DNA from: Candidatus Parcubacteria bacterium
GTDB taxonomy: Bacteria; Patescibacteriota; Patescibacteriia; Patescibacteriales; UBA12075
NCBI GenBank assembly: GCA_002869165.1
Contig: PKTK01000001.1
Coordinates: forward strand, 251,362-315,361
Reading direction: 5' to 3'
Length of the DNA: 64,000 nt
The first letter of the stretch is position 1, and each line of letters opens with the position of its first letter. Under the pieces are notes generated by a model. It saw nothing but the letters and a program-made list of their open reading frames with translations, did not search any database and was not told the DNA's origin. The translations under genes and the position numbers were made by a program. Positions 65 through 50,896 of the stretch are shown piece after piece.

Positions 65-1555
65 ATGAAGAAAATAGAATTATATAATACATTAGAACGG
101 AAAAAACAAGAATTTAAACCGATTATTTCAGGTGAAGTAGGTTTATATACCTGTGGTCCTACAGTATACAATTTTGCACATATTGGAAATCTTAGAGCTT
201 ATATTTTTGAGGATATTTTAAAAAGAGTTTTGAGATATAATGGATATAAGGTTAAACATGTTATGAATATCACTGACGTAGGACATTTGACTGGTGATAT
301 GGATATGGGAGAGGATAAGATGGAAAAGGGATCAAAGCGTGAAGGTAAGACTGCCTGGGAGGTAGCTGAGTTCTATACTGAAGCTTTTATGAAAGATATC
401 AAAGCCTTGAATATAGAAGAGCCTAATATTTGGTGTAAAGCAACTGACTATATAAAAGAACAGGTGATAATGATAAGTATGCTTGAAGAGAAGGGCTATA
501 CCTATGTAATATCTGACGGTGTATATTTTGATACCTCTAAGGTAAAAGAATACAATAAACTTTCACATTTAAAACTAGAAGATTTACAAGAAGGTGCTAG
601 AGTAGAAAAGAACGATGAAAAGAAAAATCCAACAGATTTTGCTCTTTGGAAATTTTCTTATCCGGGTGGTAGGGCTTTTGATCCAAGCAAAGACAAAGAA
701 GAAGAAAAAAGACAAATGGAGTGGGAAACTCCCTGGGGTCTTGGTTTTCCTGGTTGGCATCTAGAATGTTCGGCAATGTCAGCTAAGGAACTTGGCAAAC
801 AACTCGATATTCACTGTGGCGGCATAGATCACATAAATGTACATCATACCAATGAAATTGCTCAGTCTGAAGCTGCTAGTGGCGAGAAGTTTTTCAACTA
901 CTGGATGCATGGCGCTTTTCTAAATATTGAAGGAGGCAAGAAAATGGCCAAGTCTGATGATAATTTTTTAACACTTGAGAATGCTTTTTTAAAAAAAGGA
1001 ATGGACCCCTTAGTATATAGATTTGCAACTTTGCAAACCCATTATCGAAAGCCGATGGAGTATTCCGAAGAAGGTATGAAAAATGCTAGTAAGGGCTTTG
1101 AGCATTTAAGAAATCAAGTTAGAGCCTTGGGAGAGGAGGCTGGAAACGTAAATGAAGATTTTAAATCTAAATTTACAGATGCTATAAATGATGACTTAAA
1201 TACACCTCAAGCTTTAGCAGTAGTTCAGGAGGTATTAAAATCAGATATGTCTAGTAATGATAAATTAGCTACGGTTTTTGATTTTGATATTGTTTTAGGG
1301 CTTGGGCTAGGGGAGTTGGATGGAGAAAATATAAACATTGAAAGTGATGAAATGAATACAGAATTATATATAGAAGAAGGATTAAAAAGCATTCCAGAGG
1401 ATGATTTAAAATGGATAAGAGAGAAGGCTCCTATAAGAAATTTAGCAAGAAAAAATAAAGATTGGGCTGAATCTGATAGACTTAGAGATCAATTTGAGTC
1501 TAGGGGATATATTATTAAGGACACTAACAAAGGAATGGAGATTAAGAAGAAATAA
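65..1555 (+). CDS. cysS: cysteine--tRNA ligase
   Basis: 496-aa ORF; class I aaRS HIGH-type motif (HIGNLRAY) and KMSKS-type motif (KMAKS); overall CysS-like architecture. Confidence 0.93.
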   Translation: MKKIELYNTLERKKQEFKPIISGEVGLYTCGPTVYNFAHIGNLRAYIFEDILKRVLRYNGYKVKHVMNITDVGHLTGDMDMGEDKMEKGSKREGKTAWEVAEFYTEAFMKDIKALNIEEPNIWCKATDYIKEQVIMISMLEEKGYTYVISDGVYFDTSKVKEYNKLSHLKLEDLQEGARVEKNDEKKNPTDFALWKFSYPGGRAFDPSKDKEEEKRQMEWETPWGLGFPGWHLECSAMSAKELGKQLDIHCGGIDHINVHHTNEIAQSEAASGEKFFNYWMHGAFLNIEGGKKMAKSDDNFLTLENAFLKKGMDPLVYRFATLQTHYRKPMEYSEEGMKNASKGFEHLRNQVRALGEEAGNVNEDFKSKFTDAINDDLNTPQALAVVQEVLKSDMSSNDKLATVFDFDIVLGLGLGELDGENINIESDEMNTELYIEEGLKSIPEDDLKWIREKAPIRNLARKNKDWAESDRLRDQFESRGYIIKDTNKGMEIKKK

Positions 1556-1562
1556 TTATCCA

Positions 1563-2017
1563 TTGTCATTCCCGGCTGGAGTTGTGAGTGAATGCGAGCT
1601 ACGGAAGGGAAGGGAATCCAGGGGTGGTTAGTAAAATTATAAAAGAGGAGGGTAATATGAAGAAAGAATATTTCTATTATGTATATATGCTCGCTAGTCA
1701 AAGAAACGGCACATTATATATTGGTGTGACAAATAGTCTATTTAGAAGAAGTTTTCAGCACAAGCTAAAAGAAAATCCAGAGTCATTTACAGCAAAACAT
1801 AGTATTGAAAAGCTAGTTTATTATGAAACATATAATGATATATATTTGGCTCTAGGAAGAGAAAAATAATTAAAAGGTTGGAATAGGGCATGGAAAATTA
1901 AATTAATTGAAAAAGAAAATAAGACTTGGCGGGATTTATTTTTGGATATGGTGAATTAATATTTATACGAGTTTCTCCTGGATTCCCTTCCCTCGCTTCG
2001 CTCGCCGGGAATGACAA
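1563..2017. mobile_element. TIR-flanked element carrying a GIY-YIG gene (arms GTCATTCCCGGC...GGAATCCAGG / CCTGGATTCC...GCCGGGAATGACAA)
   Basis: Imperfect inverted repeat arms at 1563-1622 and 1977-2017 bracket the GIY-YIG ORF; same arm family recurs at 49701-49813. Confidence 0.4.
1657..1869 (+). CDS. GIY-YIG nuclease family protein (UPF0213-like); frame continues past an in-frame TAA to 1959
   Basis: Strong RBS AAGAGGAGG 7 nt upstream of ATG 1657; YVYML...GTLYIGVTN GIY-YIG motif; the sequence after TAA 1867-1869 reads LKGWNRAWKIKLIEKENKTWRDLF, which is the conserved C-terminus of this family. Confidence 0.7.
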   Translation: MKKEYFYYVYMLASQRNGTLYIGVTNSLFRRSFQHKLKENPESFTAKHSIEKLVYYETYNDIYLALGREK

Positions 2018-2143
2018 GAGAAAGAGCTTCGCCCGTCGGGAATGACAAAGAAAAAGGATTCCGCTCGCCGGGAATGACAAGAGAAAGAGCTTCGCCCGCC
2101 GGGAATGACAAAGAAAAAGGATTCCGCTCGACGGGAATGACAG
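2004..2143. repeat. 63-bp tandem repeat (about 2.2 copies) with 31/32-bp sub-period containing CGGGAATGACAA
   Basis: Direct reading: GCCGGGAATGACAA at 2004, 2067 and a partial copy at 2130; part of the right arm of the GIY-YIG element. Confidence 0.8.
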
Positions 2144-2268
2144 AGGTGGGAGTCCCAGGGTGACAAAGAAGAAAATAATTTGCTTCGTTCGAGGTGAAGA
2201 ATTTAGGAGCAATAAGTCAATGAACATACCATGGTATGTTCATTGCAAAAAAGTGAATTTAAAATATT

Positions 2269-3204
2269 ATGAATAACAATTTTTGGGAAAATTTAGATAA
2301 AGGTTTTTTGGCACTGGCTCCTTTGGCCGGTGTTTCTGATTTGCCTTTTCGGCAGATCTGTAAAGAATATGGTGCGGATGTGGTTTATTCAGAAATGGCT
2401 TCAGCAACTGCTCTTGCTTTTGCGCCTGAGAAAACTCTGGAACTTGTTGAATTTGAGGATGTAGAACGACCTTATGTAGTCCAGTTGTTTGGTAAAGATC
2501 CAGAACATTTTAAAGTAGCAGCCAAATTAATAGAAGAAAGAATAAGTCCCGATGGCATTGATATTAATTTTGGTTGCCCGGTCCCTAAGGTAGCTAAGCA
2601 AACCGCTGGTGCAGAGCTTTTTAAGGATATTAAACTTTCCAAAAAAATCATTGAAGCTACTATCAATTCAACTTCATTGCCAGTTTCAATAAAGACAAGA
2701 ACTCAAGCAGGTCCAACTCATTTGCTTGAATTTTTGGATTACATGCAGAATCTAGACATAAAAGCACTAATGGTGCATGGCAGAACTTTGAAACAAGGGT
2801 TTGTGGGGGATGTAGATTATGAAACTATAAAGAGATCTAGAGATTATTTTGGAGGAATTTTGATAGCTAACGGAGGAATTGTGGATAAGAAGAGTGCTTT
2901 GAAAATGCAAGAAAAAACAGGTGCAGATGGTCTAGGAATTGCTCGAGGTGCTTTTGGCCGGCCTTGGATATTTTCCGAACTTAAAGTTAATAACTATCAA
3001 TCGCCAGAGCAAAAGGAAATTTATAAGATTATTTTACGTCACGCTGAATTAATAGTAGAGAAAAAGACTGAGAAGTATTTACTGGAATTTCGCAAGCATT
3101 TATGTTGGTATGTAAACGGCATGCCAAATGCCAAGCGACTTAGAGAAGAATTTGTAAAAGTAGAGACGCTAAGTGATATAAAGGAAATTATTAATAAAAA
3201 TTAG
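2269..3204 (+). CDS. dus: tRNA-dihydrouridine synthase
   Basis: 311 aa; LAPLAGVSDLPFR...VVYSEM N-terminus and a TIM-barrel flavoprotein pattern typical of the Dus family. Confidence 0.88.
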   Translation: MNNNFWENLDKGFLALAPLAGVSDLPFRQICKEYGADVVYSEMASATALAFAPEKTLELVEFEDVERPYVVQLFGKDPEHFKVAAKLIEERISPDGIDINFGCPVPKVAKQTAGAELFKDIKLSKKIIEATINSTSLPVSIKTRTQAGPTHLLEFLDYMQNLDIKALMVHGRTLKQGFVGDVDYETIKRSRDYFGGILIANGGIVDKKSALKMQEKTGADGLGIARGAFGRPWIFSELKVNNYQSPEQKEIYKIILRHAELIVEKKTEKYLLEFRKHLCWYVNGMPNAKRLREEFVKVETLSDIKEIINKN

Positions 3205-3415
3205 GACTTTTAAACACAAAAGACGACAATTTAATGTCGTCTTTATTTTTTTTGTAATTATTATTTTTATTAAGATCATTTTCACATTTGAGACAGATGT
3301 CATATCCTGCTTCTAGTAGAGATTTGTGAAGTTTTTTTTCGCAAATAAAACAAACTCTTTCACCCTTTTTATTGTATCTTTTGGTGAGTATTGCCTTATC
3401 TATTTTTTTGACCAT
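3191..3415 (-). CDS. small zinc-ribbon protein (CxxC...CxxC)
   Basis: 74-aa ORF; TKRYNKKGERVCFICEKK...CLKCEND; its 3' tail runs through the dus terminator hairpin, so the C-terminal extent is uncertain. Confidence 0.4.
   Translation of the reverse strand: MVKKIDKAILTKRYNKKGERVCFICEKKLHKSLLEAGYDICLKCENDLNKNNNYKKNKDDIKLSSFVFKSPNFY
3220..3252 (+). terminator. rho-independent terminator after dus
   Basis: Hairpin AAGACGACAATTTAATGTCGTCTTT followed by a T-run. Confidence 0.6.
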
Positions 3416-3429
3416 TTTCTTATCCTGAT

Positions 3430-3588
3430 TTATTCTTCATATTCATCAAGCTCAGCTTCAAACTGTTCTTTACAGCAAGCTATACAGTGAGTAGTGCTAT
3501 TTTTTTTGTCTTCATCTGACATAGTTTTTTCGCAATCTCGGCAGATTTGTTGATCGTCTTTGTCATATTTTTTCGTATTGTAGTACAT
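3430..3588 (-). CDS. small zinc-ribbon protein, paralog of the 3191-3415 ORF
   Basis: 52-aa ORF below the ORF-track cutoff; GGTGAGG-like RBS upstream; MYYNTKKYDKDDQQICRDCEKT...CIACC aligns with TKRYNKKGERVCFICEKK of the neighbouring gene. Confidence 0.4.
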   Translation of the reverse strand: MYYNTKKYDKDDQQICRDCEKTMSDEDKKNSTTHCIACCKEQFEAELDEYEE

Positions 3589-49064: not shown

Positions 49065-49664
49065 ATGCTAGACAAAACTTACAAAAGAGCAAATAAAGAT
49101 ATTAATAAACACATGGTGAAAAAGGCACAGCACAATAATGCCATGTGGTTTTATAATCTTCACATTAAAGAAGTAGTTGAGTGTGCTAGACAATTACTCC
49201 CTCTATACAATTCCGATGAGAAGGTAGTAACGCTTGCTTGTTGGCTTCATGATGTAAGTCTTCTTTATGTTGAGTCACAGAATAATATGATTGATGCGCA
49301 TAAGATTCATCATACGGAAAGCGCTAAAATTGCCGATGAGTTATTGAAGCCTTATAAAATGGATAAACAAGAAAAAGATTTGATTATTAGTTGTGTGCAG
49401 TATCATAGAAATAAGTCAGGCTATCAGCCAAAAAAAACGGAAGAAAAGATTGTAGCGGTAGCTGATGCTATGTCTCACTTCACCTCACTTTATTATTTTA
49501 CCTATTTTAAATTTAACCCCAATGATTCCTTAGAGGAAATGATCTTAAAGCGAAAAAAACAAATAGAGAAAGATTGGAATAAATTGGATATATTGCCAAA
49601 ATCAAAAAAAATAGTTAAAGACAAATATTTATTTTTTAAGGAGCTGATTAATAACTACACTTAG
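49065..49664 (+). CDS. HD-domain-like protein
   Basis: WLHDVS and QYHRNK motifs; 199 aa. Confidence 0.45.
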   Translation: MLDKTYKRANKDINKHMVKKAQHNNAMWFYNLHIKEVVECARQLLPLYNSDEKVVTLACWLHDVSLLYVESQNNMIDAHKIHHTESAKIADELLKPYKMDKQEKDLIISCVQYHRNKSGYQPKKTEEKIVAVADAMSHFTSLYYFTYFKFNPNDSLEEMILKRKKQIEKDWNKLDILPKSKKIVKDKYLFFKELINNYT

Positions 49665-49700: not shown

Positions 49701-49813
49701 TGTCATTCCGAACGGAGCGAGGAATCCCTTAGATGTTGAAATATAAGCATTTTTACTATTTTGACGTTTAAGGGATCTCTTCAGTCTTTTCCCTCGTTAC
49801 GAGATGACAAGGA
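49701..49813. repeat. hairpin/MITE-like repeat of the GTCATTCC...GGAATCC...GATGACAAG family
   Basis: Arms GTCATTCCGAACGGAGCGAGGAATCCCTT and AAGGGATCTCTTCAGTCTTTTCCCTCGTTACGAGATGACAAGG, homologous to the arms at 1563-1622 and 1977-2017. Confidence 0.65.
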
Positions 49814-49840: not shown

Positions 49841-50896
49841 ATGAAAAAAATTGCCCTAGTAATAAGTCCTAACTACAAGGACTATGCCAAGAAGTATTTA
49901 AAAGAGTGCATGGAGAGTATCCGTGCACAGGTTTTCGATGAGGAGATTAAGGTGTTTATCACTGATAACGAAACTAGCCCAGAGTCATATAAATTATTGA
50001 GAGAATTAGCTCCAGAAGCAGAGTTGGTTTTAAACAAAGGGAATGACGGCTTTGCCAAAGGATGTAATGATTCAATTAGATTAGCACTACAAGAAACATT
50101 TGATTATATAATGCTTATAAACATGGATACTGTGTGTGATAAGTATATGTTACGAAATATTATAGAATACGCAGAGAGAACACCTGACACTGCTATCATT
50201 CAAGCTAGGGTAATGCTTTATGATAAACCTGAACGAGTAAATACAATTGGCAATGAAACTCATTTTTTAGGTTTTGGGTATGGTAATGGTTATAACAAGA
50301 AATGTAGTGAGATTATGAATGATGTAAAAGATGAGATATTTTATCCTTCTGGCTCAGCCATTTTGATTCGTGCAGAGTCTCTAAATGAAATTGGTTTATT
50401 TGATGAAAAAATGTGGATGTATAATGAAGACCAAGATTTAGGTTGGAAAACATGGTTGGCAGGTCATAATGTTAAGTTGGCAAAGGATGCGGTGATATAT
50501 CACAAATACGAATTTGCCAAATCAATCAAACAATATTATTTCATGGACCGTAATAGAATAATTGAAATTTTGAAAAATTATAAATTTTTAACTTTAGTTT
50601 TAATATTCCCAGCCTTTTTTGTAATGGAGTTAGGTTTGGTTCTTTTTTCCTTGGGGAATGGTTGGTTTAAAGAAAAGCTCAAAGTTTGGAGCTTTTTCTT
50701 TCGTCCTAGTACCTGGATTTACTTATACAGGGAAAGATTAAAAACTAAAGAAATTAGAAAAATCAAAGACAGAGATATACTGAAATTAATGCAAGGGGAG
50801 ATAAAGTTTCAAGAAATAAATGACTGGAAATTAAAACTTGCCAATCCCGTATTAAGATGCTATTTTAGTATATTGAAAATAGTTGTTTTTTGGTAA
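49841..50896 (+). CDS. glycosyltransferase family 2
   Basis: GT-A fold; N-terminal IALVISPNYKD and DxD-like region. Confidence 0.75.
   Translation: MKKIALVISPNYKDYAKKYLKECMESIRAQVFDEEIKVFITDNETSPESYKLLRELAPEAELVLNKGNDGFAKGCNDSIRLALQETFDYIMLINMDTVCDKYMLRNIIEYAERTPDTAIIQARVMLYDKPERVNTIGNETHFLGFGYGNGYNKKCSEIMNDVKDEIFYPSGSAILIRAESLNEIGLFDEKMWMYNEDQDLGWKTWLAGHNVKLAKDAVIYHKYEFAKSIKQYYFMDRNRIIEILKNYKFLTLVLIFPAFFVMELGLVLFSLGNGWFKEKLKVWSFFFRPSTWIYLYRERLKTKEIRKIKDRDILKLMQGEIKFQEINDWKLKLANPVLRCYFSILKIVVFW

Follow-up and report, generated by a model that had tools for sequence, protein, structure and literature searches.

A Ssn-type GIY-YIG nuclease module with divergent repeats, probably inactivated recently, in a Candidatus Parcubacteria genome

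Background

The Ssn proteins, described by Chenal et al. 2025 (Nat Commun 16:2388, PMC11893778), are single-domain GIY-YIG single-strand nucleases of about 94 aa, which cut single-stranded DNA beside a hairpin repeat, the NTS/SRM (SRM, Ssn-related motif), of the form CGTCATTCCCGCG…GCGGGAATCYRG. The layout of this repeat is GTCAT, stem, loop, stem and ATCC (PMC11893778). SsnA of Neisseria meningitidis, a protein of 94 aa belonging to CDD cd10448, binds the NTS CGTCATTCCCGCGMAVGCGGGAATCYRG solely as a single strand and in one orientation, and cuts a few nt upstream (PMC11893778). Among thousands of Ssn homologs an SRM motif is nearby in 71% and on both sides in 42%, and the NTS-ssnA-NTS layout has been likened by the authors to an insertion sequence and to REP/RAYT (PMC11893778). 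In this study we analyse a stretch of 64,000 nucleotides from a Candidatus Parcubacteria genome (contig PKTK01000001.1, positions 251,362 to 315,361; hereafter the window), in which a small GIY-YIG gene, here called ssn, lies with its repeats between cysS (65-1555) and dus (2269-3204). On our estimate it is about 80% probable that this locus is a recently inactivated Ssn-type module with a divergent form of the repeat. Read in this way, it is an ordinary pseudogene of the published system, neither a new element nor a recoding event.

Results

The interrupted ssn gene and its protein

The gene is preceded by a Shine-Dalgarno sequence containing GGAGG, AAGAGGAGG (1643-1651, plus strand), which as read from the sequence lies 5 nt upstream of the ATG at 1657. 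From this ATG an open reading frame (ORF) of 70 codons runs on the plus strand to a premature TAA at 1867-1869 (the whole truncated ORF being 1657-1869), and it includes the GIY and YIG motifs as well as R31, H35, E57 and E69. Beyond the stop, where the next base is T1870, the same frame continues through 29 further codons to the original TAA at 1957-1959; this untranslated rest of the gene (1870-1959, plus strand) reads LKGWNRAWKIKLIEKENKTWRDLFLDMVN and codes for the last part of helix 3 as well as two C-terminal helices. All of these positions are in accordance with an earlier prediction made from the sequence alone (hereafter the original prediction), which had also recognised a small GIY-YIG nuclease gene here. 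Indeed, the 70-aa ORF matches the Pfam GIY-YIG domain (PF01541) with 37 bits and the joined reading of 100 aa with 48 bits, the latter spanning profile positions 2-77 of 78 (residues 7-81); this is the sole Pfam domain found.

Searching 5.8 billion proteins, we obtained 4635 homologs, mostly of 97-100 aa, and the best of them (P0001) is 78% identical across 99% of the joined sequence. The best 120 of the 4635 all have at least 97 aa, except for two calls from this very genome, P0049 with 70 aa and P0057 with 93 aa from an upstream GTG. Apart from P0049, none of these 120 ends at the position equivalent to 1869 or has a stop at position 71, and the closest intact copies are those of the loci L164 and L165. 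Of the 25 homologs aligned, 24 have Q at position 71 and the remaining one has E; the codon itself is CAA in L164, L165 and L004, and CAG in L166. Given the CAA of the closest relatives, the TAA at this conserved Gln position is explained by one C-to-T transition, just as the original prediction had proposed. The proposal that the downstream frame is the true C-terminus stands too, given the rise of the domain score on joining and the length of at least 97 aa of the top homologs. The invariant residues of the alignment beyond the stop, K73, W79, K80, E85, N88, W91 and D93, are intact in the window in 7 of 7 cases; identity to P0001 is 86% after the stop versus 74% before it, and the mean identity over the 25 homologs is 75% after versus 68% before. 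The post-stop part is therefore at least as conserved as the pre-stop part, and such an absence of decay suggests that the mutation would be recent.

An AlphaFold model of P0001, with a mean pLDDT (predicted local distance difference test) of 83.8, shows the order β-β-α-α-β-α-α-α, and its best matches in PDB are the GIY-YIG domains of BH0048, Slx1 and UvrC; sequence searches of PDB found no Ssn structure. Placed on this model, the premature stop sits within the helix 62-74 and removes the helices 77-87 and 89-96. When the protein is aligned with UPF0213 proteins, Glu69 falls on their conserved Glu, and the stop comes one residue later. The conserved Glu of GIY-YIG enzymes is taken as a metal ligand, and Glu69 is probably one.

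The nature of the in-frame TAA

It had been left undecided by the original prediction whether the TAA inactivates the gene or is read through, and of these two choices our results favour the former. If the TAA at 1867-1869, in the stretch GAAAAATAATTAAAAGG, were read through or decoded as Gln, whether by a suppressor tRNA, by a reassigned code or by programmed read-through, the gene would still be functional and would yield the nuclease in its full length of 100 aa, perhaps in amounts low enough to be safe. The intact post-stop part with all its invariant residues and its higher identity to P0001 is in line with this idea, and so is the fact that the replaced codon encodes Gln, the amino acid to which UAA is reassigned in some eukaryotes. 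However, TAA is the usual terminator in the window, ending 31 of the 44 long ORFs (TAG ends 8 and TGA 5), the neighbouring cysS included, and TAAT is a normal context for it, found in 12 of the 44; Gln, for its part, is encoded by CAA 317 times versus 128 times by CAG. The tRNA scan of the 64 kb detects as sole tRNA an ordinary tRNA-Gln(CTG), and no suppressor tRNA there. Nor do other homologs among the best 120 share the stop, as noted above. Of 83 other homolog loci, three (L025, L023 and L049) have nonsense codons, all at other positions in the gene; decay of ssn is thus not rare, and no common recoding site is seen. Continued decoding through the stop is thus very improbable.

A mistake of sequencing or assembly at T1867, with the real gene intact, would be the simplest dismissal of the stop, in that a single base separates the sequence from an intact gene, the locus is rich in repeats, and the Logan contig (L002) stops at the array. 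Yet T1867 is present in four assemblies, namely the window and L001, L002 and L003, the latter three being from ENA ERZ794999 (a 500-kb contig), Logan SRR5894289 and JGI 3300007102 (a 369-kb contig), from samples that are possibly not independent. These three depart from the window at 476, 3255 and 4298 (at most 3 other positions over 4.9 kb); T1867 is thus carried by two or more sequence variants, and an error is scarcely credible. It may further be supposed that the 70-aa product is kept as a repeat-binder that does not cut, and that it regulates or competes at SRM sites. SsnA proteins with catalytic mutations were found to retain their binding to NTS single strands (Chenal et al. 2025, PMC11893778), and in the window both the strong ribosome-binding site and the first 70 codons are intact. 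Against this, three of the five helices are lost wholly or partly together with the 7 invariant residues, which makes folding unlikely, and the top matches include no homolog of about 70 aa, so that nothing points to selection for a short form; a retained binder is quite improbable. On the whole, a nonsense mutation in a gene that has lost its function remains our preferred explanation of the TAA.

Proposed assignment to the Ssn family

We examined the association of the gene with its repeat in 80 homolog loci from many phyla. With at most one mismatch, GTCATTCC is found upstream on the gene strand in 65 of them and downstream on the other strand in 71; 62 loci have it on both sides, and about 10 per side are expected by chance. 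The strict published SRM pattern is present upstream in 39/80, downstream in 36/80 and on both sides in 24/80, the last count being in the range of the 42% of the paper. Two loci whose proteins are 57% and 56% identical to that of the window (L013 and L083) have the NTS consensus minus its first base on both sides, and some homolog loci carry the exact NTS in inverted flanks. The same long-spacer variant as in the window, with arrays of half-sites on both outer flanks, is seen in a Patescibacteria locus (L004, 65% identical), and the downstream arm and the outer array are conserved between the window and L164 and L165.

The original prediction had placed the protein in the UPF0213 subfamily, and this label is not supported: the similarity of the family profile to the solved UPF0213 proteins is marginal (E = 0.053 for BH0048, 1ZG2, and E = 0.13 for EF2693, 1YWL), a search of PDB with the single sequence gives no hit, and no NCBIfam model matches the protein.

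Repeats around the gene

The inverted arms on the two sides of the gene, followed by a tandem array, had been described by the original prediction and are confirmed here. The arms take the form GTCATTCC…GGAATCCAGG, the bracketing repeat being also written GTCATTCC…GGAATCC, and they pair over 30 nt with 77% complementarity (1563-1592 versus 1988-2017) and over 50 nt with 74% (1594-1643 versus 1956-2005). Upstream of the gene, the motif as read from the sequence is TTGTCATTCCCGGC-(37 nt)-GGGAATCCAGG at 1563-1622 on the plus strand; the 37-nt spacer is non-palindromic, and both halves are identical to the published NTS. Downstream, the inverted motif occupies 1977-2017 on the minus strand with a 16-nt spacer, as TTGTCATTCCCGGC-GAGCGAAGCGAGGGAA-GGGAATCCAGG, and this arm is kept in L164, L165 and L004. 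The NTS halves are thus located on both sides of the gene, at 1565-1621 (plus strand) and 1977-2015 (minus strand). The array at 1997-2142 on the minus strand has a period of 63 nt with 2.3 copies and 97% matches, and really consists of alternating 31- and 32-nt units with five GGGAATGAC half-sites (cores at 2007, 2038, 2070, 2101 and 2133). It is built of 5' half-sites, and every second unit (2057-2078 and 2120-2141) is a short complete motif, GTCATTCCCGnCGAGCGGAATCC; the outer arrays of L004, L164 and L165 are alike.

Within the window, GGGAATGACA has six exact copies, all at the ssn locus, and 11 sites with at most one mismatch versus 2.9 expected, a number that none of 100 shuffles reaches. 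A generalised scan (GTCAT-stem-loop-stem-ATC), used together with a core-motif test after the published SRM pattern had failed, gives 7 hits at two loci versus 1.8 expected, and one of them, at 1565-1618, is the upstream motif. The second locus is a gene-less inverted doublet of the motif, with its parts 47 nt apart, at 49702-49808. No further site of this kind turns up in the 64 kb, and the doublet has as neighbours an HD-like ORF (49065-49664) and a glycosyltransferase-like ORF (49841-50896). Here the plus strand reads GTCATTCCGAACGGAGCGAGGAATCCC and the minus strand GTCATCTC…GAGATCCC, with the stem altered on both sides from TCC/GGA to CTC/GAG. We rejected the doublet as a remnant of ssn: its alignment to the 5' end of the gene is unconvincing, and its inner ORF, MLKYKHFYYFDV*, is only faintly like the N-terminus of the family. 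A CRISPR-like array is ruled out by the 2.3 copies of the 63-nt unit with just two alternating 'spacers', and the reading as an RNA element was given up as well: Rfam searches of the locus (E up to 10) and of the whole window (gathering score) yield nothing but one tRNA.

Possible mobility of the module

The site of the module was compared in metagenomic relatives that keep cysS beside dus, with CysS 62-68% identical to that of the window. In eight of them (L084, L091, L093, L095, L096, L097, L100 and L124) the cysS-dus spacer is empty and measures 13-78 nt, while it is filled by ssn in the window, in L086 (5383-5871) and in L094 (3932-4406), each with its own variants of the motif, for example GTCATGCTGAAC…GTTCAGCATC in L086. 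The exact insertion boundaries cannot be read from this comparison, because these relatives are distant. The three ssn genes at the site are 47-52% identical to each other and none is the nearest relative of another; that of L086 is 66% identical to one in a deltaproteobacterial metagenome-assembled genome (MAG), and the nearest relatives of the window's gene are found elsewhere, in a type I restriction-modification locus (L164 and L165, 78% and 76% identical) and in another context (L166). The cysS-dus spacer could thus be an insertion hotspot, or ssn could be an old, fast-evolving resident of it. Overall, the termini of the unit, its outer arrays of half-sites among them, accompany the gene into unrelated contexts, and the empty versus filled spacers suggest that the module may move. 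Two further observations concern these loci. In L164 (1630-6300) and L165 an intact ssn has hsdS on one side and, on the other, a rhuM/fic gene followed by hsdR; and the cysS-dus spacers of L087 (5380-5692) and L092 (4112-4513) hold a common other insert of about 300-400 nt, which contains ATGATGAAAATG… and …GGAGGTGATCC and may be a small ORF or an RNA.

In 6 of 63 loci, the direct repeats that immediately flank the module score above the 99th percentile of a control made of mismatched pairs. Those of the window are weak: the left copy (1537-1557, plus strand; GGAGATTAAGAAGAAATAATT) is the end of cysS with its stop, and the right copy (2159-2180, plus strand; GGTGACAAAGAAGAAAATAATT) lies just beyond the array. 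Their core of 14/15 nt (1544-1557 versus 2166-2180) has a score of 23, which is reached by 1.9% of control pairs; beyond this core, the match was extended by eye to 21-22 nt. Across the loci the flanking repeats are imperfect and heterogeneous, from 14 to about 130 nt. For example, in L058 (~650-760 and ~1240-1300) the last 46 nt of the upstream ORF with its stop are duplicated around the ssn module, and in L054 (~2760-2880 and ~3400-3560) the duplicated piece comprises about 130 nt from the 5' part of a small downstream CPxCG zinc-ribbon ORF. A target-site duplication of fixed length, as made by transposases, is not supported, although a minority of loci give a signal: the lengths vary, the repeat of L056 consists of array units, and that of L051 resembles DnaA boxes.

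The original prediction saw here the architecture of an autonomous terminal inverted repeat (TIR) element with a GIY-YIG endonuclease as its cargo; taken as a transposon, the unit would have the GIY-YIG protein as its transposase. This would agree with the inverted arms that bracket the gene, with the spacer found empty in eight relatives and occupied by ssn modules in L086 and L094, with the 78% and 76% relatives in a restriction-modification locus that share the window's downstream arm and array, and with the direct repeats above the 99th percentile of the control in 6/63 loci. An insertion-sequence-like layout is noted by Chenal et al. 2025 (PMC11893778) as well. Nevertheless, the window copy is broken and therefore not autonomous; the flanking repeats are imperfect, of 14 to ~130 nt, and in L056 mere array units; and there are only one gene copy and one doublet in 64 kb. 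The only ORF with a recognised domain in the module is the GIY-YIG one, and no DDE, HUH, serine or tyrosine recombinase transposase is encoded. GIY-YIG enzymes hydrolyse DNA, and we know of no strand-transfer activity among them. Such a transposon is hence unlikely: mobility has comparative support from the empty and filled sites and the unrelated contexts, the autonomy fails with the broken gene, and the generic inverted repeats are in fact the published NTS/SRM recognition motif of a hydrolytic single-strand nuclease without demonstrated transposase activity. A related idea, which we hold only tentatively and would not bet on, is that SRM-ssn-SRM units are true mobile elements driven by the GIY-YIG single-strand nuclease through an undemonstrated mode of transposition or insertion. 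The hints of it are the three ssn lineages in one and the same spacer, the unit's ends that follow the gene to unrelated places, and the duplicated pieces of a neighbouring gene around some insertions (L058, L054 and, weakly, the window). If this were true, the copy in the window would be an element that died only lately, and the 49.7-kb doublet would be a non-autonomous derivative.

The neighbourhood of the locus

The flanking products are CysS (PLX27831.1) and DusB (PLX27832.1) of the Candidatus Parcubacteria bacterium MAG; their accessions are consecutive, therefore GenBank annotates no protein between them. The G+C content is 32.5% in the window and up to 52% in the repeat region. The repeat array makes spurious ORFs at 2011-2163 (plus strand) and 1898-2227 (minus strand), and the former, of 50 aa and reading MTRERASPVGNDKEKGF…, was called as a gene by JGI (L003, 3424-3576). 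Between the array and dus there is a perfect 28-nt palindrome at 2218-2245 (CAATGAACATACCA/TGGTATGTTCATTG), and a hairpin directly 3' of cysS is seen in the empty-site relatives L084 and L097. The palindrome may be a displaced cysS terminator, though no T-run follows it on the plus strand. In addition, two neighbouring small ORFs 3' of dus, both on the minus strand (3191-3415 with 74 aa and 3430-3588 with 52 aa), have paired CxxC motifs, are called in all assemblies and have no recorded Pfam hit.

Discussion

In the proposed course of events, the module would consist of a gene for a single-domain GIY-YIG nuclease of about 100 aa between inverted copies of its recognition repeat NTS/SRM, and would have reached the cysS-dus spacer by insertion. 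Intact members of the family bind the repeat as a single strand in one orientation and cut a few nt upstream, as shown by Chenal et al. 2025. One CAA-to-TAA transition at codon 71 would then have ended the ORF one residue past Glu69, cutting helix 3 and removing the two C-terminal helices. With the stop after Glu69 and these helices lost, the gene would be a recent pseudogene, most likely without an active nuclease.

Several points weigh against this reading. The 29 undecayed codons after the stop fit a very recent mutation, and are equally expected from continued translation. The Ssn assignment comes from the published description, from homology and from the repeat flanks, and its link with a tested SsnA is an indirect one, through the 56-57% identical homologs of L013 and L083 with their near-complete NTS consensus. 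The published degenerate SRM pattern, HGTCWYN(0-2)YYVSBRHN(0-5)WNVSBRGN(0-2)RNCYNB, has 0 exact matches in 64 kb and none at the locus with 1 mismatch, and the local motifs need 2 substitutions each to fit it. In addition, their hairpins offer only a 5-6-bp ATTCC(C)/(G)GGAAT stem, and the six copies of the motif are within the shuffled range (z from -0.6 to +1.0); since the fold energy is no better than that of shuffles, no stable structure is claimed, and the window motifs may be a divergent or decaying variant. Finally, an intact second ssn copy may be present elsewhere in the genome, the search by tblastn having covered the 64-kb window, where it finds none.

For this locus itself little changes, as the biochemistry of the family and its association with the repeat were published in 2025. 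What the locus adds is that Ssn modules are present in Parcubacteria, of the candidate phyla radiation (CPR), with divergent repeats having long spacers and outer arrays of half-sites. The published pattern misses the long-spacer form, therefore surveys based on it undercount such modules. For annotation pipelines, GTCATTCC…GGAATCC arrays beside small GIY-YIG genes are to be taken as Ssn motifs and not as ORFs like MTRERASPVGNDKEKGF…. The repeated filling of one housekeeping spacer, together with module ends that are conserved in unrelated contexts, lends comparative support to a mobility which Chenal et al. had put forward only as a hypothesis, and whether such modules transpose is the only point with real potential for novelty.

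Comparison with known systems

The free-standing GIY-YIG homing endonucleases of the I-TevI type have in common with the window protein the catalytic domain and the link with gene mobility, but they possess a separate DNA-binding domain and cut double strands, whereas the protein here is a bare domain with repeat flanks. The UPF0213 proteins (E. coli YhbQ, BH0048 1ZG2 and EF2693 1YWL) agree in fold and size and are the best PDB matches in structure and sequence; however, the similarity is marginal at 20-25% identity, and the C-terminus REKQLKxWxRxWKxxLIE is specific to the Ssn-like group. Insertion sequences and TIR transposons are alike in having terminal inverted repeats, which here (30 nt, 77%; 50 nt, 74%) are made of SRM motifs, and in the presence/absence polymorphism at a conserved site, cysS-dus, but differ in that no transposase of a known class is found in the window unit.

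In the REP/REPIN/RAYT system (TnpA-REP), a nuclease gene, usually in single copy, likewise lies between inverted copies of its own hairpin repeat, and the substrate is a single-stranded hairpin; the gene-less inverted doublet at 49702-49808 resembles a REPIN. The difference is that RAYT is an HUH/Y1 enzyme with covalent intermediates while Ssn is a GIY-YIG hydrolase, and that the repeats are not of high copy number in the 64-kb window.

From the published Ssn/NTS/SRM modules the locus differs by the nonsense codon in its gene, by the outer tandem array of half-sites, and by its host, the Parcubacteria (CPR) being unmentioned in the main text of PMC11893778. It also has spacers of 16 and 37 nt with a 5-6-bp stem in place of the stem-loop, therefore the published SRM pattern is unmatched. 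With this system the locus shares the following parts: a single-domain GIY-YIG protein of about 100 aa in the joined reading; inverted GTCATTCCC…GGGAATCCAG motifs on both sides, with both halves identical to NTS, so that the conserved halves GTCATTCCC… and …GGGAATCYRG flank the window gene; and homologs over many phyla with like flanks.

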